Of a stretch of DNA of 64,000 bases, positions 241 through 61,139 are shown in pieces. Origin of the DNA: Eledone cirrhosa. Its lineage: Eukaryota. Position numbers and translations under genes: made by a program. Numbering within the stretch: position 1 is the first letter of the stretch; each line of letters opens with the position of its first letter. The notes beneath the pieces were generated by a model that saw only the letters and a list, made by a program, of their open reading frames with translations, did no database searches and was not told the origin of the DNA. The stretch lies in contig OZ024742.1 of the NCBI GenBank assembly GCA_964016885.1, forward strand, positions 300,886,001-300,950,000. The letters run 5' to 3'.

Positions 241-599
241 TGATGATGATGGCTGCCCCCTCGTTATCGAGAATATCCATTGCACGATATAACATTATTA
301 ATAATTATTAATTAATTCTATCATGCAATGCCTGTGCATGAATATTTTTTTTAAAGTGAGGAAAGACTGTGCACTGAGCCAATCCCACTCTCTGAGCGAC
401 AGTAGCTATAACCCGAAAAGAAGAAAAGATCAACATCATCAGTAACTACTGAGCCGCAGGTTTTATGTCGGAGGTATCCCAGATTCCTGAGTTGCCTTCT
501 CCTAGAAGAATGCCCTGACAAAGGCTAGGGGTCCTTCACTCCCAGTGGGTTAACCGCGCGATCGGATACCCAGCCCGACTATTTCTATGTCCCCGCGCA
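241..599 (-). mobile_element. Non-autonomous RTE-derived bipartite element, family B (lacking head)
   Basis: Near-identical to 11444-11799 and to both ends of the long RTE (54851-54892 and 58811-59106). Carries the RTE 5'UTR-type motif CTAGGAGAAGGCAACTC on - and a 3' stem-loop CTCG-ATAA-CGAG followed by GGCAGCCATC(ATC)(TATG)n. Confidence 0.8.
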
Positions 600-713
600 T
601 ATATGCACACATGCATATACATATATACATATACATACACATGCATACATACATACATACATACATACATACATACATACATACATACATACATACATAC
701 ATACATACATACA

Positions 714-1321
714 TGGTGGCTGCCAACTCGTTTTCGAGTACGGCCACTACTTTATATCCATGTAGGAGAACCCCTACCGAAGCGCTGAACGAGTGTGACT
801 TTTTAGTCCAGCCAGCGACTTGAAAACTCTGGTACGAACACTACACTTGTGACAATTATTGACACATAGTGCTGGGCCCATTGTACCATGTGAGGACAAG
901 TGCAGAGAGATTTCCAGATATAAAGCAATGCCTGTGCCGTGAAGCTTTTATAGTGAGCAAAGGCACTGCACAAAGCCTGTCCCACTCTCTTAACCAAGAT
1001 GATATTTACCAAAAAGAAGAACAAGTCAACATCATTGGATACCATCAGGGTTGCAGGTGTTATATCAGAGTTTTCCTTCTCCTAGAATTCTGCCTTGACA
1101 AAGGCTAAGGGGTCATCTCTCCCGGTGATTTTGGATGGCCATTGACTCTGAAGAGCTCCTTTGCCCTTTGACAGGTTTTGTTTTTAGTCCTGCAGGATGT
1201 CCAAAGTCACCCTCCTCACCAAGAAACCTTGGTGGGGTTGCCAGTTTAGTCGCCAACGACCCGACCATGAGACAGGTTGTACTGGGATACATGTTACCAA
1301 TAGGACCAACTGGTGACCTGA
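714..1321 (-). mobile_element. Non-autonomous RTE-derived element, family A (~608 bp)
   Basis: Near-identical copies at 10758-11365, 60054-60660 and a partial at 60751-61058. Has the motif CTAGGAGAAGGAAAACTCTGA typical of RTE 5'UTRs, a remnant C2H2 finger (HKCSVRTRVFKSLAGLKSH), and a 3' stem-loop ACTCG-AAAA-CGAGT with a (TATG)n tail. Confidence 0.85.
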
Positions 1322-3232: not shown

Positions 3233-3559
3233 GTTGTGCATATTACTTAAAATGTAATGCTACTTATGCGTACCATAATGTACTTACAGTTGTGCGTGTA
3301 GGACAAAATAATGTGTATATTGCCTATGTTTGGAGGATATGTTGGTATTACGATAAACAGTTATTTGCGATAAACAGATCCATTAACAACGTAGAGCACA
3401 ACTTAACCGGTAAGTTGCCTTTTCCTTTTTGTATACGCACATCCACCCTACAATACAAAAGCTTGAGGTTGCCTACAAAAAGCGGGTACCTGTATTTTAT
3501 CATATATATATATATGTGTGTGTGTGTGTCAGCAATACCATGCATCGCAAAAACTGTCA

Positions 3560-3750
3560 CATATCAAGCGATGCCTGTGCTTGAGGGCTTTGCACGGGGC
3601 CAATCCTACTCTCTGAACATCGAATGCATTTACCCAAAAAGTAGAACTGGTCTACATCATTGGATGCAAATAAAGTCGCGGGTTTTATATCAGAGCAACC
3701 TTCTCCTAGAGAGATGTCTTAATGAAGACAAGGAGTCTCTCACTCCACAA
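3560..3750 (-). mobile_element. Degraded relative of elements A/B (RTE 5'UTR part)
   Basis: Contains gcgatgcctgtgc, gccaatcctactctctga, ggttttatatcagag and ccttctcctaga in the same order as element B. Confidence 0.55.
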
Positions 3751-3940
3751 AAATAAAATAGATGTGAATCTGTAGCGTATGTATAATTTATTGGAACCAT
3801 CGTTTTACGACTGAATTCCCCGTGCAGTTAGCATATCAAGAACCATCTCTCAATGTTCTTGGTAGGCTAATCAACCCACAGTCTGTCAAAACGGGTAAAT
3901 CAGCCATAGAATGACGATGATGTATGTATATATGCATATG

Positions 3941-4339: not shown

Positions 4340-4403
4340 GTGTCACCCATGTATGAAAAAAGGATCAAGTCAAAGCAATTCTCGAAATCGAGGGGCAGCC
4401 ATC
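4340..4403 (+). mobile_element. Short RTE-type 3' end
   Basis: CTCG-AAAT-CGAG-GGGCAGCCATCA followed by a TATG-like tail, the same terminal signature as A/B but on +. Confidence 0.55.
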
Positions 4404-4427
4404 ATATGTATATGTATATATATATAT

Positions 4428-4615
4428 GAACCAGTAAGACCCCGACAGCTGAGCTCAAGCCGTTTCGACGGCTAATTCTGTCCAGAATTAGCCGTCGAAA
4501 CGGCTTGAGCTCAGCTGTCGGGGTCTTACTGGTTCCTATTACCCACTCTACTACCTCAAGTATTGAGTACTTTGGTGCGTTATAGTCCACCTGGTTCCTT
4601 ACCACATTTCCTTCG

Positions 4616-10628: not shown

Positions 10629-10757
10629 ATACATAGATACATAAATACATACATACATTCATAAATACATACGTACGTACATACATACATACATACATAC
10701 ATACATACATACATACATACATACATACATACATACATACATACATACATACATACA

Positions 10758-11365
10758 TGGTGGCTGCCAACTCGTTTTCGAGTACGGCCACTACTTTATA
10801 TCCATATAGGAGAACCCCTACCGAAGCGCTGAACGAGTGTGACTTTTTAGTCCAGCCAGCGACTTGAAAACTCTGGTACAAACACTACACTTGTGACAAA
10901 TATTGACACATAGTGCTGGGCCCATGGTACCCTGTGACGACAAGTGCAGAGAGATCTCCAGATATAAAGCAATGCCTGTGCCGTGAAGCTTTTATAGTGA
11001 GCAAAGGCACTGCACAAAGCCAGTCCCACTCTCTTAACCAAGATGATATTTACCAAAAAGAAGAACAAGTCAACATCATTGCATACCATCAGAGTTGCAG
11101 GTGTTATATCAGAGTTTTCCTTCTCCTAGAATTCTGCCTTGACAAAGGCTAAAGGGTCATCTCTCCCGGTGATTTTGGATGGCCATTGACTCTTAAGAGC
11201 TCCTTTGCCCTTTGACAGGTCTTGTTTTTAGTCCTGCAGGATGTCCAAAGTCACCCTCCTCACCAAGAAACCTTGGTGGGGTTGCCAGTTTAGTCGCCAA
11301 CGACCCGACCATGGGTCAGGTTGTACTGGGATACATGTTACCAGTAGTACCAACTGGTGACCTGA
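10758..11365 (-). mobile_element. Element A copy
   Basis: Colinear with 714-1321. The finger remnant reads HKCSVCTRVFKSLAGLKSH. (CATA)n on both sides. Confidence 0.85.
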
Positions 11366-11443: not shown

Positions 11444-12063
11444 TGATGATGGCTGCCCCCGCGTTATCGAGTATGGCCATTGCACGATATACCATCGTTA
11501 ATAATTATTAATTAATTCTATCGTGCAATGCCTGTGCATGAAGATATTTTTTTTAATGAGGAAAGACTGTGCACTGAGCCAATCCCACTCTCTGAGCGAC
11601 AGTAGCTATAACCCGAAAAGAAGAAAATATCAACATCATCGGTAACTACTGAGCCGCAGGTTTTATATTGGAGTTATCCTAGTTTCCTGAGTTGCCTTCT
11701 CCTAGAAGAATGCCCTGACAAAGGCTAGGGGTCCTTCACTCCCAGTGGTTTAACCGCGCGATCGGGTGTCCAACTCGACTATTTCTATGTCCCCGCGCAT
11801 ATACATACACATGCACCCATGTATATACACATATACATATACATACATATGTATATACATATTTACACACTTTTGGATGGCCGTTGACTCTTATGAGTTC
11901 TTCCGCCCTTTGTCATGTTTTGTTTTTTGTCCTGCAGGGTGTCCAAAATCACCCTCCTCACCAAGTAAACTTGGTGGGGTTGCCGGTTTAGTCGCCGACG
12001 ACACGACCATGCGACACGTTGTACTGGGTTACATGTTACCAGTAGCACTCAAGAGTGACCCGA
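11444..12063 (-). mobile_element. Element B, probable full-length copy (head + degenerate microsatellite + 5'UTR + 3' end)
   Basis: 11444-11799 matches 241-599. 11871-12063 is a diverged version of the element A head and ends at the equivalent nucleotide. Confidence 0.75.
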
Positions 12064-12142
12064 CACATACATACATACATACATACATACATACATACAT
12101 ACATACATACATACATACATACATACATACATACATACATAC

Positions 12143-28148: not shown

Positions 28149-30301
<2,153 letters not shown>

Positions 30302-30488
30302 AGTTAACAAGATATCGTTTAAGGTAATCCAAGTAGAGGTTATGAGTACTCTGTAGCGAGGATAGTTTTAACGTTCGGCAATTTTTGACTCAACAAGAAG
30401 TTTCCTTAGTCGGGTGGCTGGTTTAAGAAAGTTCCCCTAGGGAAGTGGTTCTTGGAGTAATAATAGTACATGAGTGAAGAATAACATA

Positions 30489-30521
<33 letters not shown>

Positions 30522-30528
<7 letters not shown>

Positions 30529-32411
30529 TAAAATAACAGATTAAAGTTTAAGCAAAGAATCGCTGCTTTCACCCTTAACGGGATCTTCTGAAACTAACAA
30601 ATTCAATCTGTAAACGCAGAACTGGATATTTCAAAAAACGTTGCAACCGGAGGAAGACAGGAAGACGATACTTTGGTTCGTGGTAACGTTCGCTGGCAAA
30701 GAACGGGAAAAAACGAATAATACGTCATTAATAGGAGCGGTGAAAAACAATTACGCGCAAAGACAAAACCACGTTTATGGTATAGAAGAGGTCGTAGACT
30801 AATGTTCTCTTAGGTGGTGCATAGAGACGTTCTCTGGCAATGAACGAAAAAACGAAGATAATAAGTCATACGTGGAGCGTGGAGAACAATAGCACGCAAA
30901 GACAAAACCACATAAATGGTATAGCAGAAGTCGTAGACTAAAATTCTAACTAGGAGACCAAATGAATCTCCGCTACAGAGTTAAGAACAAAGTAAATAAA
31001 TACAATACAGAAGTAATAGAAACAAATAAATACATACACGCAAACAGATACGTACATACACAAGCATACGCAGAACCTTACCATAGGTATACAAAAGCAC
31101 GCACATATAAATATGTGTGTGTGTGTGTATGCTTGTGTACAAATAAATAAATAATTATATAAACGTATATAAGTAAATAAATACGTATATAACAAGCGCA
31201 CACGCATACCTACATATAAATACACGAATGTTCGGAGACGTAAGTCAACTAAAACAAGAAGTACACATATACACACACCCACCATACGTACGAACCTGCA
31301 TACTCACGCAGACGCAAAACTCCCGTATACACATAGCTAAACCCTAAATACCAGAAAATGTAAAAATTATACGCCATAACAGTCAAATATACGTACGAGA
31401 AGGTATACATGCCTTCACAAAACATACGGGTAATATATACTTACCTATGCAAATAAGTAAAGGAATAAACAAAACATATACTTAGCTCCCACATCAAGAC
31501 GTAAAATATCCACGTATAGATCGTGCTATCCGTTAGGGTATAAGGTGGGGCTGTAATACAGGAAAGTTTTGTGCAATTTATGTTTACAAGCCGAAATTGC
31601 CTCAGATTTTTTGTTTAAGATGTGGTCTGTGGCGTACAGTATTTCCAGGGCCTCAGCGGCGCAGAGGTCACATGGTCTTTTATTTCCGTTATACGATCTA
31701 GCCCTAGCTAGGATCTCCCAGTGTAACTTATATTGGGTGTGGTTGTCTTTTAGACTCCAGATATAAGCTGAAAGTGACGCCATATTCCTTTTTAGAGGGT
31801 AACGAAAAGAATGGGTATGCATGTAAAGACGCTGCTTGAAACTATTGGCGGTTAACCCTATGTAGGCCCTACGGGACGTGGGTATTACAACCTTACATTT
31901 GTAGACAATGTTACTAGAGATGCATTTCCCGGATAGGGGGCAATCAGCCCGATTCCTACGATTACAGTTAGTACTAACTACAGGGTTGCACGTGTTCCTA
32001 CGGCTAGGTAGTTTAGCTAAATTTGAAGCTGTGATGTTATGTGCAAGGTTAGGAGTCGTAGAGTAAGAAATTTTAATAGTATTTCTATTAAAAATTTTAC
32101 TATATTTATGTGTAGGGGGAAAATGCTTCGTAATAAGGGAAAGAAAGATCTTAGCTAATGGTGTGGCCACCTCCATATTATATGGTGGGTTAAACCAACA
32201 AATGCGACGGGATCTATTTCTTCTAGGTCTATTTTCGTACTCTGTATATGCTACCTTATCGACAAATCCACTTCGAGCAAGAGCTTCATTGTAATAAGTG
32301 GAATGGTCGTTGAAAATGCGCTCGTTGGTGGAAAGACGGGAAAGCCTCAACGAAACGTTTCTTACCAGGTTCTTGGTTATGCTGGCAGGGTGGTTGGAAT
32401 GCTTACTTATG

Positions 32412-32414
<3 letters not shown>
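30522..32414 (-). mobile_element. Same Penelope family, 5'-truncated: thumb + GIY-YIG (31526-32350) + 3'UTR/pLTR
   Basis: CPLSGKC..NIVYKCKV...YIGLT..FKQRL..H...CDLC..E. 32112-32414 overlaps 29868-30172 in inverse; (TA)n flanks. Confidence 0.9.
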
Positions 32415-32460
<46 letters not shown>

Positions 32461-44727: not shown

Positions 44728-44816
<89 letters not shown>

Positions 44817-44824
<8 letters not shown>

Positions 44825-45102
44825 TAAAAAAATAATGAATAAAACAATGAAACAGTTCCTTATATTAAACAAATAAAGTTCATTATTTAACGATCGTTTC
44901 TAGGACATATATGTGTTAGAATTGGCATGCATATTCAACAGATCTATGTACAAAATTGTATAATTTTGTACATAGATCTGTTGAATATGCATGCCAATTC
45001 TAACACATATATGTCCTAGAAACGATCGTTAAATAATGAACTTTTTTTGTTTAATATAAGGAACTGTTTCATTGTTTTATTCATTATTTTTTTAACATTT
45101 TA
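44817..45102. repeat. Near-perfect palindrome with ~140-bp arms
   Basis: Centre caaaatt-gtat-aattttg (44951-44968). The right arm contains GAAA-cgatcg-TTA. (TA)n lies on the left. Confidence 0.9.
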
Positions 45103-45234
45103 TCTTGACTCTGTATTCCGTTTATCTTTCACCGAAAGTGATTTTTGAATGCATCTCTTCTTTCCATGATATCCGGATTACATTGAGTTCTTCATACGGA
45201 TTGGACACTACCGTAAACTTTTGGTAGATTTATC

Positions 45235-54832: not shown

Positions 54833-54850
54833 CATTCATACATACATACA

Positions 54851-54979
54851 TGATGGCTGCCTACTCGTTATCGAGTATGGCCATTGCACGAGGAGAAAAA
54901 AAAAATAAAATAAAATAAAATTAAAATAAAAAAAAAATTAATAAATAAATAAAAAAGAAAATAAAAATTAAAAAAAGAA

Positions 54980-55012
<33 letters not shown>

Positions 55013-58000
55013 CATACACATACATATACATACATACACACACACATATATACACACACATACATTAATAACAATAATAATAATAACAACAATAATAATA
55101 ACGACAACAACAATAATAATATACATATACATATATGCATACACATACACGCACACACATAAACATATCTATACACACACACACGATAGCAACTAACAGC
55201 GCTGCGATCGAATGTGGCTTTATAGCCCAGCCAATGATCTAAAATGTCTTGCACAGAGTCGGCAACCAAAACATTCACTGGGAATAGTCGGCTGTGGTTG
55301 GAGTTCGTGTACTTTTGCATGTCGCTTGAGCCCTCCTGCTGATTTACATTCTCTACCACATGTTTGGCAAGCATGATGAGTAGCATCTCCAACAGCAGCC
55401 TGGTAGTCAACCACTGGTCTTACTTTATGACTGCGAAGATGACTTTCGAGTCCAGCTTTGCTTAGGGAGAGTCTCGCACAGACGCTGCATGTCATCACCA
55501 TAGGAGAACCCTCGCCGTCTGGAAGTGCAACAGCAATGCCCTTCCTCACATCCCGCTTTACTTTCTCGTATGCGATTCGACATGCCTCAAAGGCAACTTT
55601 TCCCTCATATACAGTCTTTCTCCATTTATTACGATCAGCAACAATATTTCCCATGTATCAGCAGAGATGTTAGCGTCTTTCAGAGAGGCTTTCAAGGAAT
55701 CCTTATACCTCTTTTTTGGTTTATGTGGCGGTCGTTTTCCTTTAACCAACTCTCCATAAAAGAGTTGTTTTGGTATTCTAGACTCCTTCATCCTGGCAAG
55801 GTGACCACTCCAACGGAGTCGTTGCTTAAGCACAAGAGCTTCTATACTGTCACACATAGAGCTTTCCAAAATCTCGACATCACTGATGTGGTCCCTCCAG
55901 TGAACGCCATGGATCCGTCTGAGACACATCTGATGGAAACGCTCCAATTGCTTAAGGTGGTGTCGATATGTGACCCAAGTCTCGCAGGCATAAAGAAGAC
56001 AAGCGAGCACACATGCCCTGTACACCTTTACCTTTGTCCTCCTGCATATGTCTCGCCGACCCCAGAGTCGCCTTTCTAGCTTTCCGAAAGCATCACTTGC
56101 TTTCCTAATCCTAAGTGAGATTTCACTGTCAAGGTTGCTGTATCGATTGACAGTGCTTCCCAGGTAGACAAACTGATCAACCACTCCAAGTCGTTTACCA
56201 TACACATAGATATTTGGTTCAGTGTACTGCTTACCAGGGGCAGGTTGGTACATGACGACGGTTTTCTTGAGACTGACAGTCAATCCTAGGGCAGTGCAAG
56301 CGTCAGAAAATGCATTCAAAATGTGCTGCATATCACTCTCTGTGTGCGCTACAAGATCGCAATCATCTGCATACAAGAGGTCTCTTATGATTGATGTAAA
56401 TACTTTTGTCTTTGCAGCAAAGCGCCTGATGTTAAATATGCTGCCTGAGGTTCGATATCGGATGTAAACACCATGCTCGCAATTCCTGAATGCAATACAG
56501 AAAACCATTGCAAAGTATATGGCAAACAGGGTCGGTGCTGGAATATCCCCCTGTTTCACTCCATTTTTTACTGAGATAGGCTCCGACATGTTATCTCCGA
56601 CATTAACCCAAGCCTTCATGTCGTCATGGAAAGACCTAACTAAAGCAAGGAACTTATCAGGGCAACCAAGTTTCTGGAGAACCTTCCAAAATGCATCTCT
56701 GTTAACAGTATCGAAAGCTTTTGTCAGATCGACAAAAACCTGATACAGATCCAAGCCTTGTTCTATGCACTTCTCCTGGAGCTGTCTAGCTGAGAAGATC
56801 ATATCAGTAGTGCCGCGTCCAGCACGAAAACCAGATTGACTTTCAGGAAGAACACAATCTGCAATGTGTGTCAGCAGACGGTCCAGAAGCACCCTACATA
56901 AAACTTTCCCTACGAGAGAAAGCAATGATATACCTCTGTAGTTCCCACAATCATTCCTGTTACCCTTTCCCTTGTACAAGACCACCATTACTGCATCTCT
57001 CCAGTCCTCAGGTACGGATTCATTAGCCCATATCCTGCCAAACAAAGAATGAAGATGTTGCAGGAGTCTCTCACCACCATCTTGTAGGAGCTCAGCATGT
57101 ATGCCATCCATACCTGGAGATCTTTACTGTTCAGCTTCGAAATAGCCACTGCAACCTCCACAAGCGTCGGAGGTTCGGCGAGAGCTACTTTCACAGGACT
57201 TTCTGGAAAGAGATTGAGGAAATCTTCACTGACGACAGACGGCTGATTCAAAAGATCATCAAAGTGCTCTCGCCACCTTCGTAGAATTCCTTGTGAGTCA
57301 CGAAGAAGTTCTTTGCCATCCTTGCTGCGAAGCGGTGTCACCAGAGAAGAAGACGGTCCATAAACCTCACGCAAGAGACTGTACAACAGCTTTGTGTTAT
57401 TGGAATCTGACGCAGTTTGTATCTCATCAGCCTTCTCACTCCACCACTGATCCTTCATCTGAGAAAGACTCCGCCTAACACATGATTTTACATCCTTGAG
57501 TTCCGCATGCAACTATTCCTCTCCTGTGGTTTTGCCGTCAAGTAGCGTGACAGAGCACACCTCTTATCAGCCAACAAGTCTTCTATATGTACATCATTCT
57601 CATTAAACCAGTCCTGATGTTTTCTCTGCACCAATCCCAGAACACGCCTGCCTACATCATAAACCGACTTTTTAAGGGTCGGCCAATCCTCACCAAGATC
57701 TGCAGCCTGCATCTCTTCTTCCAATGTCCTCTTCACATTTTTATCCTTAAGACGAGCAGCATTCAATCTTTTGGGCAGGGCAACACCAGGAGCCCGGTTT
57801 TTACGTTTAGTGATTAGTTTCACTTTTGCGCGTACCAGGCGGTGGTCCGTCCAGCACTAAGCTCCACGAAGAGCACGAACACACTGCACATCCTGTCTGT
57901 CACGCACCCTGACTAAGACGTAGTCCAAAAGATGCCATTCCTTAGATGCAGGATGCATCCATGTGGTCTTGAATTTGTTCTTTTGTTGGAACATGGTGTT

Positions 58001-59106
58001 GGTAACACACAGATCCAGCTCCTCACACATCTGCAGCAGGAGCATACCATTGTTGTTACACTTTCCCACCCCATGCCTTCCGATTACATTCCATGTGTTA
58101 AAATCTCTACCCACTCTAGCATTAAAGTCACCAAGCACGATGACTTTGTCTGCCTGAGGGATGTTTCTTAAAACACCTTTCAAGGCATGGTAAAAGGACA
58201 CTTTTTCTTCATCGACAGAATTCATAGTTGGAGCATACACACTCACCAGGGTAGCATATCTTCCTCTGTCCAGCGGAACTCTCATGGACATAAGACGCTC
58301 ACTAATCCCTACTGGGAATTCTTCTAATTTATTCACAAGTACAGTCTTAACAGCAAATCCTACCCCAGCCTCTTTTCTGGTTCCTTCATCTCTTCCTTTC
58401 CAGAAGAATATATATTTTCCACAAAATTCTGTAAGATGACCATCTCCAGCTAACCTCGTCTCAGATAAAGCCACGATGTCAAGATCGTAACGTCGAAGCT
58501 CCTTTGCAACAAGAGCGGTCCTTCGTTCAGGACGCTCCAAGGAATCCCTGTCAAGCAGCGTCCGTACGTTCCAGCGTCTAAGACTAAATGCCTTGTTTGG
58601 CTCTATTACAATGGCACGATGACGAGCGGGCCCAGGCTGTGATAACCTGGGACCCCTGCCCTTATTGCCAATTATCTTTTTTGTTCCAGAACCTAAATTG
58701 CCAATTATCTCTTTTATATTGTTCTGGAATATCATTGAATTGGGAAAAAAAAAAAAAAAAAAAAAAAAAGTAATAATAATAGTAACAATAATAATAATAA
58801 TAATACACTATTAATAATTATTAATGCACTCGCGCAATGCCTGTGCGTGACGAATATTTTTAAAGTGAGGAAAGACTGTGCACTGAGCCAATCCCACTCT
58901 CTGAGCGACAGTAGCTCTAACCCGAAAAGAAGAAAAGATCAACATCATCGGTAACTACTGAGCGGCAGGTTTTATATCGGAGTTAACCCAGTTTCTTGAG
59001 ATGCCTTCTCCTAGAAGAATGCCCTGACAAGGGCTAGGGGTTCTTCACTCCCAGTGGTTTAACTGCGCGATCGGGCATCCAGCCCGATTATTTCTGTCTC
59101 CGCGCA
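54851..59106 (-). mobile_element. Near-full-length RTE LINE (AP endonuclease + RT + three C2H2 fingers), inactivated
   Basis: EN motifs WNVRTL, ALSETR, YAPT, GDFNARVG, LDYV. RT motifs NYRGISLLS, QSGFR, FVDLTKAFD, GVKQG, YADD, YLGS. Stops at 57857 and 55220; frameshifts near 57500, 57115 and 55650. UTR ends match element B. Confidence 0.92.
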
Positions 59107-59253
59107 AAAAAAACAAAAAAAAAACTCACTTATTGACACTTATACGTACGACATACACACACGCGCATACATATGCGCGCACACACACGCATACATACGC
59201 GCGCACACAGCAACACTCATACATACAAACAAACACACACACGCTACTCACTT

Positions 59254-59315
<62 letters not shown>

Positions 59316-59501
59316 TACCGTCATTACTGATACAAGATTACAAGATTATGTCAACTGTTGACTTTCAAGAGTTTGTATAGTTGAAGCCGTTCGTATTACA
59401 GTCCAGTATTATTATAATTGCTTTACAGCATACATACATACATACATGCATACATACATACATACATACATACATACATACATACATACATACATACATA
59501 C

Positions 59502-59532
<31 letters not shown>

Positions 59533-59586
59533 CATACATACATACATACATACATACATACATACATACATACATACATACATACA

Positions 59587-59971
59587 TTATTGGGGCACTG
59601 GGATATGTTAGATACTGCCTCAATACACATCTTGAGAAGCTAGGCTTCACAGGAACAGAAAGAACACAACTAGTTAGGAAACTACAAGTACAATCCATTA
59701 ATGGAACAGTAAAAATATGAAAAACATTCCAAAAATGTTGCATCTAATAACTGCATATACACATGTACAGATACAAAGCATATACACATGCACACATACA
59801 ACTCAAAACATCCACATCCACACATACAATAACATCCATATCTACACATGCATGCATACATATCTACCTAGTTGATGTTGTGTAAATTCCAATGAGAGAG
59901 TCTTGTGTCCATGTTAGAAACCGACTCTCTCTCTATTGGTAAAACTTTGTGAAATTATAAAACCAGAAAAA
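59587..59971 (+). mobile_element. R4/Dong family 1, short 3' fragment
   Basis: Near-identical to 61683-62067; (CATA)n on both sides. Confidence 0.85.
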
Positions 59972-60053
59972 CATACATACATACATGCATACATACATAC
60001 ATACATACATACATACATACATACATACATACATACATACATACATACATACA

Positions 60054-60660
60054 TGGTGGCTGCCAACTCGTTTTCGAGTACGGCCACTACTTTATATCCA
60101 TGTAGGAGAACCCCTACCGATGCGCTGAACGAGTGTGACTTTTTAGTCCAGCCAGCGACTTGAAAACTCTGGTACAAACACTACACTTGTGACAATTATT
60201 GACACATAGTGCTGGGCTCATGGTACCATGTGACGACAAGTGCAGAGAGATCTCCAAATATAAAGCAATGCCTGTGCCGTGAAGCTTTTATAGTGAGCAA
60301 AGGCACTGCACAAAGCCAGTCCCACTCTCTTAACCAAGATGATATGTACCAAAAAGAAGAACAAGTCAACATCATTGGATACCATCAGGGTTGCAGGTGT
60401 TACATCAGAGTTTTCCTTCTCCTAGAATTCTGCCTTGACAAAGGCTAAGGGGTCATCTCTCCCGAGATTTTGGATGGCCATTGACTCTTAAGAGCTCTTT
60501 TGCCCTTTGACAGGTTTTGTTTTTAGTCCTGCAGGATGTCCAAAGTCACCCTCCTCACCAAGAAACCTTGGTGGGGTTGCCAGTTTAGTCGCCAACAACC
60601 CGACCATGAGACAGATTGTACTGGGATACATGTTACCAGTAGCACCAACTGGTGACCTGA
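60054..60660 (-). mobile_element. Element A copy
   Basis: Colinear with 714-1321. Confidence 0.85.
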
Positions 60661-60750
60661 CCATAATACATACATACATACATACATACATACATACATA
60701 CATACATACATACATACATACATACATACATACATACATACATACATACA

Positions 60751-61058
60751 TGGTGGCTGCCAATTCGTTTTCGAGTACGGCCACTACTTTATATCCATGT
60801 AGGAGAACCCCTACCGATGCGCTAAACAAGTGTGACTTTTTAGTCCAGCCACCGACTTGAAAACACTGGTACAAACACGACACCTGTGACAATTATTGAC
60901 ACATAGTGCTGGGCCCATGGTACCATGTGACGACAAGTGCAGAGAGATCTCCAAATATAAAGCAATGCCTGTGCCGTGAAGCTTTTATAGTGAGCAAAGG
61001 CACTGCACAAAGCCAGTCCCTCTCTCTTAACCAAGATGATATTTACCAAAAAGAAGAA
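60751..61058 (-). mobile_element. Element A, 5'-truncated
   Basis: 3' half only; (CATA)n on both sides. Confidence 0.85.
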
Positions 61059-61139
61059 CATACATACATACATACATACATACATACATACATACATACA
61101 TACATACATACATACATACATACATACATACATACATAC

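Follow-up and report, generated by a model that had tools for sequence, protein, structure and literature searches.

A covarying complementarity between the 5'UTR and the 3' end of animal RTE retrotransposons and their short derivatives

RTE elements are a widespread family of animal jumping genes, BovB included, within the long interspersed elements (LINEs). The window, by which we mean the whole 64,000-nt stretch of Eledone cirrhosa DNA that was analysed (contig OZ024742.1, positions 300,886,001 to 300,950,000 of the forward strand), carries on its minus strand one long RTE-type copy together with copies of three short families, A, B and C, derived from such elements. An earlier note on this DNA had proposed a helix between the untranslated regions (UTRs) of the 5' and 3' ends that closes the open reading frame (ORF) of the long copy into a loop and is preserved in A and B. 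In this genome the complementarity of the two arms is beyond chance; it has a fixed position, it undergoes compensatory change from lineage to lineage, and the deletion junctions of the derivatives lie inside the loop. The features of the long copy are as follows.

54845..59430, minus strand: long copy of an RTE-type LINE, 5'-truncated by comparison with other copies, with ~93-97% protein identity to an ORF-intact copy
55193..58735, minus strand: single ORF with APE endonuclease, reverse transcriptase (RT) and C-terminal C2H2-like motifs (Pfam)
58862..58900, minus strand: conserved 5'UTR motif GAGAGTG...CCTCACTTTAA, a predicted local hairpin that serves as a pairing-independent anchor
58829..58839, minus strand: 5' arm of the long-range helix, with one private substitution in the window copy
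54882..54892, minus strand: 3' arm of the long-range helix, from sequence comparison
54864..54875, minus strand: 3' terminal hairpin CTCG-ATAA-CGAG, of a type known from PMC6007223
54853..54857, minus strand: GCCAT, one side of a local lower stem; this stem runs into the final 3 nt of the 3' arm and is a possible alternative fold

By its sequence features the long element is an RTE-type LINE. Its single ORF matches Pfam PF03372 (APE endonuclease) and then PF00078 (RT), its tail is a microsatellite, and it has RTE 5'UTR domains, the anchor motif matching those of RTE-14_Lch, RTE-3_PM and RTE-3_AMi by eye. The ORF of the window copy is broken by a single in-frame stop and by three frame changes. 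In an intact copy from the same young family it encodes 1181 amino acids. All 142 scored RT matches in a search of the 3.0-Gb genome were 97-100% identical, many of them inside open frames of ~1,200 codons. RTE tails in this genome are microsatellites, either (ATGT)n or (AT)n, and 5'-truncated copies occur. No RTE-labelled protein was present among 11 PDB matches, and no relatives were found in the viral contigs searched.

The six arm sequences reported for the long RTE, A and B were confirmed at their coordinates on the minus strand, as was the arrangement in which the arms are followed by a CTCG-AWAA-CGAG hairpin and this in turn by GGCAGCCA and an (ATGT)n tail. The window copy reaches only to ~59430, and other copies have further upstream sequence in common, which places the 5' arm at some distance inside the 5'UTR. 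Thus the helix encloses the ORF, as had been proposed, but does not join the termini of the RNA. Across elements the recurring order is a local 5'UTR hairpin, a short A-rich linker, the long-range helix, the 3' terminal hairpin and the microsatellite tail; the predicted 5'UTR hairpin recurs in ~10 of 14 elements, with weak single-sequence z-scores, and the 3' terminal hairpin covaries across foreign RTEs as well.

Short derivative families and compensatory change

The window contains the following copies of the short families, placed by sequence comparison.

11446..11800, minus strand: family B copy of ~355 nt with arms at 11519-11530 and 11478-11489, an internal-deletion derivative of an older long subfamily
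246..600, minus strand: second family B copy
712..1320, minus strand: family A copy of ~610 nt with arms at 917-930 and 745-758, in whose loop the final zinc-finger codons of a parent ORF are found together with its stop position
10756..11364, minus strand: family A copy
60052..60663, minus strand: family A copy
60749..61060, minus strand: family A copy, 5'-truncated
3530..3760, minus strand: family C copy, 3'-truncated, with its 5' arm at 3561-3573; a third short family, overlooked in the earlier note

All three families are multi-copy and without an ORF, and in each a 5'UTR part is joined to a parent LINE's 3' end. Genome-wide there are 21,775 exact matches to a 33-mer of A, which is ~610 nt long rather than 430 nt, and 901 exact matches to a 53-mer of B. 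Complete C copies elsewhere in the genome have the 5' arm CATCGCTTGATA and the complementary 3' arm TATCAAGCGATG. In B the 5' part can be aligned to the LINE 5'UTR. The Rfam matches listed for the window, 150 of 170, included none to a small-RNA head of the tRNA, 5S or 7SL type (no tRNA scan was run) and none to a ribozyme or cis-element family at the arms; those listed were solely microsatellite-driven microRNA matches below the gathering score. By eye, A has a 23-nt run in common with the RTE-3_BF-like part of OegopSINE.

Genome-wide copies with both arms (A, n=31; B, n=33; C, n=13; long RTE, n=18) were compared by column, and changes on both sides of the helix were seen at positions 4 (T-A/C-G), 7 (A-T/T-A), 8 (C-G/T-A), 9 (G-C/T-A) and 11 (G-C/T-A). 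Pairing is thus kept while the sequence changes, as the earlier note held, and its preservation reaches beyond A and B to C, to an older long subfamily and to the foreign elements described below. The statement that the non-Watson-Crick positions are G-U applies at family level to two pairs in A (29/31 and 28/31 copies). The G-U pair of the long RTE in the window is private to this copy: at its site the Watson-Crick base is present in 27 of 28 other 5' arms, and the 28th differs at another position (one of the 30 loci from which such arms were sought yielded none). One of the two G-U pairs in A coincides with a compensated local 3' stem, which reads GTGGC/GCCAC in A and ATGGC/GCCAT in both B and the RTE.

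A single degraded copy of the older long subfamily, L238, which is 82-88% identical to the young family, links B to its source. It carries the 5' arm and loop start of B before an endonuclease remnant, and the 3' arm of B after the end of the ORF. B-type arms therefore flank an ORF remnant, implying that the compensation at position 11 arose in long elements with arms kilobases apart, and that B is an internal deletion of the older subfamily. Among 23 stretches of that subfamily L238 alone retains its own 5' arm, the others being truncated or without the arm. The loops of A and C consist of parental 5'UTR remnants and the last codons of a parent ORF; on translation they give the last part of a C2H2 finger resembling the one in the intact ORF, and then a stop. 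A and C are thus separate deletions from two other parents, and a search for those parents returned the young family only. Since these loops are parental remnants and not cargo, they do not bear out the idea that the helix acts whatever lies between its arms.

Several further arrangements accompany these families. A fifth RTE-like 3' end lies at 4340-4410 on the plus strand, with the hairpin CTCG-AAAT-CGAG, GGCAGCCA and an AT tail but other upstream sequence, and no 5' part was found beside it; directly after it, at 4425-4535, is a near-perfect inverted repeat with ~50 bp per arm. Further inverted repeats have arms of 142 nt (44816-45103) and of 307 nt, the latter enclosing ORF fragments (29869-32415). 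Immediately upstream of a B copy, 11871-12074 on the minus strand is an 85% copy of just the first 200 nt of A. The same (ATGT)n/(AT)n repeat as in the tail usually precedes 5'-truncated RTE copies (window 59430-59600; loci L007, L094, L098, L099 and L033-L038), and A, B and RTE copies are stacked head to tail within such repeats, which may reflect either insertion into a microsatellite or its synthesis at the 5' junction. Beyond the part also present in the window, the 5'UTR of the young family (L002-L015) continues upstream for several hundred repeat-rich bases, in two length variants, which suggests 5' acquisition.

Pairing in foreign elements and published consensus sequences

A protein alignment gave 87 foreign loci (80 from metagenomes and seven from genome contigs), of which 29 were inspected and 16, having both UTRs and a usable 5' window, were tested. 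Fifteen of these were placed by the anchor motif, and L109 begins at the site. Those left out were truncated just past the arm site (L111), a duplicate of L118 (L119), without a 5'UTR (L120, L144, L154, L185), without a 3' end (L124, L148, L166), or members of a distant group with 31-33% identity and no anchor motif (L155, L160, L171, L183). The 5' window was 35 nt set by the motif (CACTNTAA plus 10 nt, or TGCCCAG). A blind scan with 75-nt 3' windows was uninformative, its top window falling near the anchor in ~6 of 21 elements; this was too noisy, and the 3' window was therefore cut to the 28 nt that stop 4 nt short of the core of the terminal hairpin. With the RTE, A and C of this genome the set comprised 19 elements; among the 18 that were aligned, RT pairwise identity had a median of 51% and a minimum of 42%.

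Cognate windows pair far more strongly than non-cognate ones. The mean duplex energy was -21.6 kcal/mol for cognate against -11.2 kcal/mol for non-cognate pairs (z -11.7; 0/200,000 permutations), and the window's own partner ranked first for 17/19 of the 3' windows and 15/19 of the 5' windows, or for 14/14 and 12/14, respectively, of the non-redundant foreign elements. A strand-neutral ungapped score gave 9.1 for cognate and 5.0 for non-cognate pairs (0/100,000). The signal disappeared when the 5' window was shifted by at least 40 nt (|z| <= 1.8 at 21 offsets) or the 3' window by at least 20 nt (|z| <= 1.1 at 10 offsets), and this flatness at all 31 displaced offsets excludes base composition as its source. 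For none of the 19 elements did more than 12 of 300 shuffled windows reach the observed energy. The arm sequences themselves are mostly unrelated, as in CATGACTTCA/TGAAGTCATG, CTCCGGTC/GACCGGAG, TTTGTGCTGCTA/TAGCAGCACAAA and TCTGCTTGCA/TGCAAGCAGA, and in a scan of whole 5'UTRs the anchored site was the best in 12 elements and tied in one.

Published consensus sequences, those of Fig. S1 and Table 1 of Kojima 2018 (PMC5786205), provided a held-out comparison that was made by eye, with nothing computed. All six LINE consensus sequences with both ends in Fig. S1 pair at the helix site. In BovB the arms are ACCCCATGAA, near 812-821, and TTCATGGGGT, near 3798-3807; Bov-A2, with CCCATGGAC/GTCCATGGG, is one compensated pair apart, and RTE-3_AMi (TCATGACATCG/TGATGTCATGG) and RTE-1_PSi (TCTTGACATC/GATGTCAAGG) likewise differ in a compensated manner. 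RTE1_LA has a 15-position pairing with three G-U pairs and one mismatch, and RTE-11_AMi and RTE-4_PPo pair more weakly. For ~11 of the 14 bipartite short interspersed elements (SINEs) of Table 1 the 5'/3' junction falls inside the helix loop, which is reduced to 6 nt in WALLSI1 and 2-4 nt in SINE-1_Pmo; one of the rest is weaker, and HaSE1 and HaSE3 are not clear. The helix of WALLSI2 includes three G-U pairs. On this comparative evidence the complementarity is real and clade-wide in the animal RTEs tested.

Two side observations concern the material compared. The 'unknown' 3' ends of MonoRep87A/B in Fig. S1 resemble by eye the 3' end of RTE locus L104, helix and hairpin included, so that they look like ordinary bipartite RTE SINEs. 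RTE-like elements L181-L187 lie in contigs of prokaryote genome assemblies and are probably eukaryotic contamination.

Possible function and competing explanations

What purpose could such a helix serve? The explanation we favour, with some reserve, is that the 5'UTR-3' helix builds a two-part template-recognition signal for the ORF protein. In animal RTE LINEs a complementarity of 9-14 bp connects a fixed 5'UTR site with the bases just before the 3' terminal hairpin; the RNA helix that it likely forms would dock the 5'UTR's conserved motif next to the 3' hairpin and tail, the ORF protein would bind this joined domain, and the reverse transcriptase would need the joined signal to begin target-primed reverse transcription. 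RNAs without the 5' arm, as in most 5'-truncated copies, would be poor templates, and a deletion between the arms would therefore give a mobile mini-element, whereas a deletion taking out an arm would give none. The juxtaposed arms may also favour such deletions through template jumping. Independently arisen non-coding SINEs transcribed by RNA polymerase III are described as retaining the 5' piece precisely as far as the arm (PMC5786205; PMC4844689), which points to the retrotransposition step rather than to translation, and 3'-only tails are given in the same papers as the rule for other LINE partners. The broader proposal that animal RTE LINEs, BovB included, carry a split RNA signal assembled across the ORF as a full-length check is more tentative, and we hold it with slightly more doubt than conviction.

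Several observations weigh against the proposed recognition signal. The young, ORF-intact subfamily has a helix eroded at its inner end by a poly-T tract, leaving eight Watson-Crick pairs plus a G-U and an A-U pair (16/18 copies) in a duplex of ~-17 kcal/mol with the flanking GG/CC. Single-sequence folding gave helix probabilities of ~0.9-1.0 in both B copies folded, but of 0.0 and 0.13 in two A copies and 0.03, 0.0 and 0.99 in three C copies; other folds are often preferred in A and C, including the local 3' stem that overlaps the arm. The test windows and hairpins were chosen after the foreign sequences had been inspected, and in 6/19 elements the anchored site is outdone in pairing strength by some other window of the 5'UTR. 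Plant Au-like and TS SINEs are reported with an RTE 3' end only (PMC6007223; PMC3747384), so that the 5' part may be dispensable in some lineages and the rule may not cover plants. The earlier note took its G-U positions as a pointer to RNA-level selection, but the best diagonals of single sequences contain nine G-U and eight A-C, and the sense duplex is more stable than the antisense in 4/19, about as in non-cognate pairs; these counts do not prove RNA-level selection.

The same observations can be set against other explanations. It is unlikely, though deserving of attention, that the helix closes a loop which serves the autonomous RNA in its translation or stability, the derivatives being by-products of template jumping at the paired arms. 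The autonomous RNA ends in a microsatellite rather than poly(A), the ORF lies inside the loop with the 3' arm often overlapping its last codons or stop, the arms of B were passed unchanged from a long parent, and published SINE junctions are separated from the helix by 2-10 nt, which is what a template-jump hotspot would produce. Yet non-coding derivatives with both arms intact have been amplified to thousands of copies, a compensated pair separates Bov-A2 from BovB by eye, and the partners of animal RTEs are repeatedly bipartite, such derivatives being reported in PMC5786205 from just four LINE clades. Less probable again is a switch in which the helix competes with the local 3' stem (RTGGC/GCCAY), exposing or hiding the priming end, with 5'UTR pairing coupling completed transcription or translation to reverse transcription. 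That stem covaries between A and B/RTE, takes in the final 3 nt of the 3' arm and is favoured by folding in A and some C copies, and for many foreign elements prediction gives an extended 3' stem that runs into the arm; the overlap of ~3 bp could, however, be plain junction fraying, and the lower stem is not predicted in L105, L113 and L130. A switch of this kind would in any case refine the two-part signal rather than replace it.

We give marginally less credence still to pairing that acts on first-strand complementary DNA (cDNA), or on a cDNA/RNA hybrid, to aid completion or second-strand synthesis. Watson-Crick pairing is the same for either strand, G-U is practically as frequent as A-C, and the antisense duplex is slightly more stable in 15/19; but the antisense advantage is much the same for cognate and non-cognate pairs (1.0 vs 1.3 kcal/mol) and is thus a matter of base composition, the one-sided changes seen at family level in this genome give G-U in 4/4 cases and A-C in none, RTE1_LA and WALLSI2 have their three G-U pairs each, the start of the cDNA becomes fixed at the target, and the 5' arm is far from the 5' junction. 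Scarcely credible is chance or compositional complementarity, even allowing for short helices and windows picked after inspection, given the sharp positional peak with flat controls, the shuffling results and the agreement of the held-out published sequences; this reading is refuted by the cognate test, the strand-neutral score and the window-displacement controls.

Why bipartite derivatives come from RTE LINEs, unlike L2 or CR1, has been an open puzzle since Bov-A. If the two-part signal is correct, one rule would explain both the two-ended mini-elements of RTEs and the SINEs whose junction lies in the helix loop. It would change the usual picture of a LINE protein that reads the 3' end only, it would amount to a full-length check of a kind not described for non-LTR (long terminal repeat) retrotransposons, and it predicts that 5'-truncated copies are dead as templates. 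It would also give a design rule for RTE gene insertion, in which paired ends of ~130 nt, the total size of the paired-end unit of B, would accept any payload in the loop.

Comparison with known systems

Short end-to-end RNA pairing that licenses template copying is familiar from the 5'-3' cyclisation of Ty1 RNA and from the cyclisation sequences of flaviviruses. These are an LTR element and viruses with other priming chemistry, and the likeness is an analogy that implies no homology. The helix described here is apparently undescribed: no account of a 5'-3' RTE helix was found in the searchable literature, older subscription papers, Repbase reports and patents lying outside its reach, so that an earlier description is improbable but by no means negligible. 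The accessible text of PMC13295347 gave no mention of secondary structure, stem or hairpin, and no 5'-3' helix was found in what is accessible of PMC7245038, PMC3531059, PMC3747384 and bioRxiv 2022.11.04.512097. The octopus element RTE-2_OV (PMC9115989), compared by description only, has a C2H2 finger and a microsatellite 3'UTR like the element here, and the available part of that paper describes no UTR pairing.

The 'Gene Writer' template RNA of RTE-1_MD (PMC13708176) offers a functional parallel, in that a payload is carried in trans between the cognate 5' and 3' UTRs. The cargo-tolerant cassette suggested in the earlier note is thus known empirically for these templates, although the loops of A and C lend it nothing. 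In the portion of that report available, the UTRs were optimised by reconstruction and screening with no structural reason given, and the present helix bears on such gene-insertion RNAs.

Bipartite RTE derivatives, a conserved 5'UTR domain and the 3' hairpin have already been published (PMC5786205; PMC6007223). The CTCG-AWAA-CGAG hairpin resembles the 3' stem-loop of stringent LINEs, plant RTE/Au SINEs included, as presented by Nishiyama and Ohshima 2018 (PMC6007223); that signal, as presented there, is local to the 3' end, whereas the helix here joins the 3' end to a site 3-4 kb upstream. Like Bov-A2/Bov-tA, AfroSINE, WALLSI, RTESINE and the AviRTE SINEs (PMC5786205; PMC4844689), the families A, B and C derive from RTEs by internal deletion that left a 5' and a 3' part, and have in common with these named elements a conserved 5'UTR domain and a microsatellite tail. 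The sections of those papers that were available give the two-part structure without pairing between the parts, and Kojima 2018 (PMC5786205) states that two-part derivatives arise 'for unknown reasons'; in the families described here the two parts are complementary.

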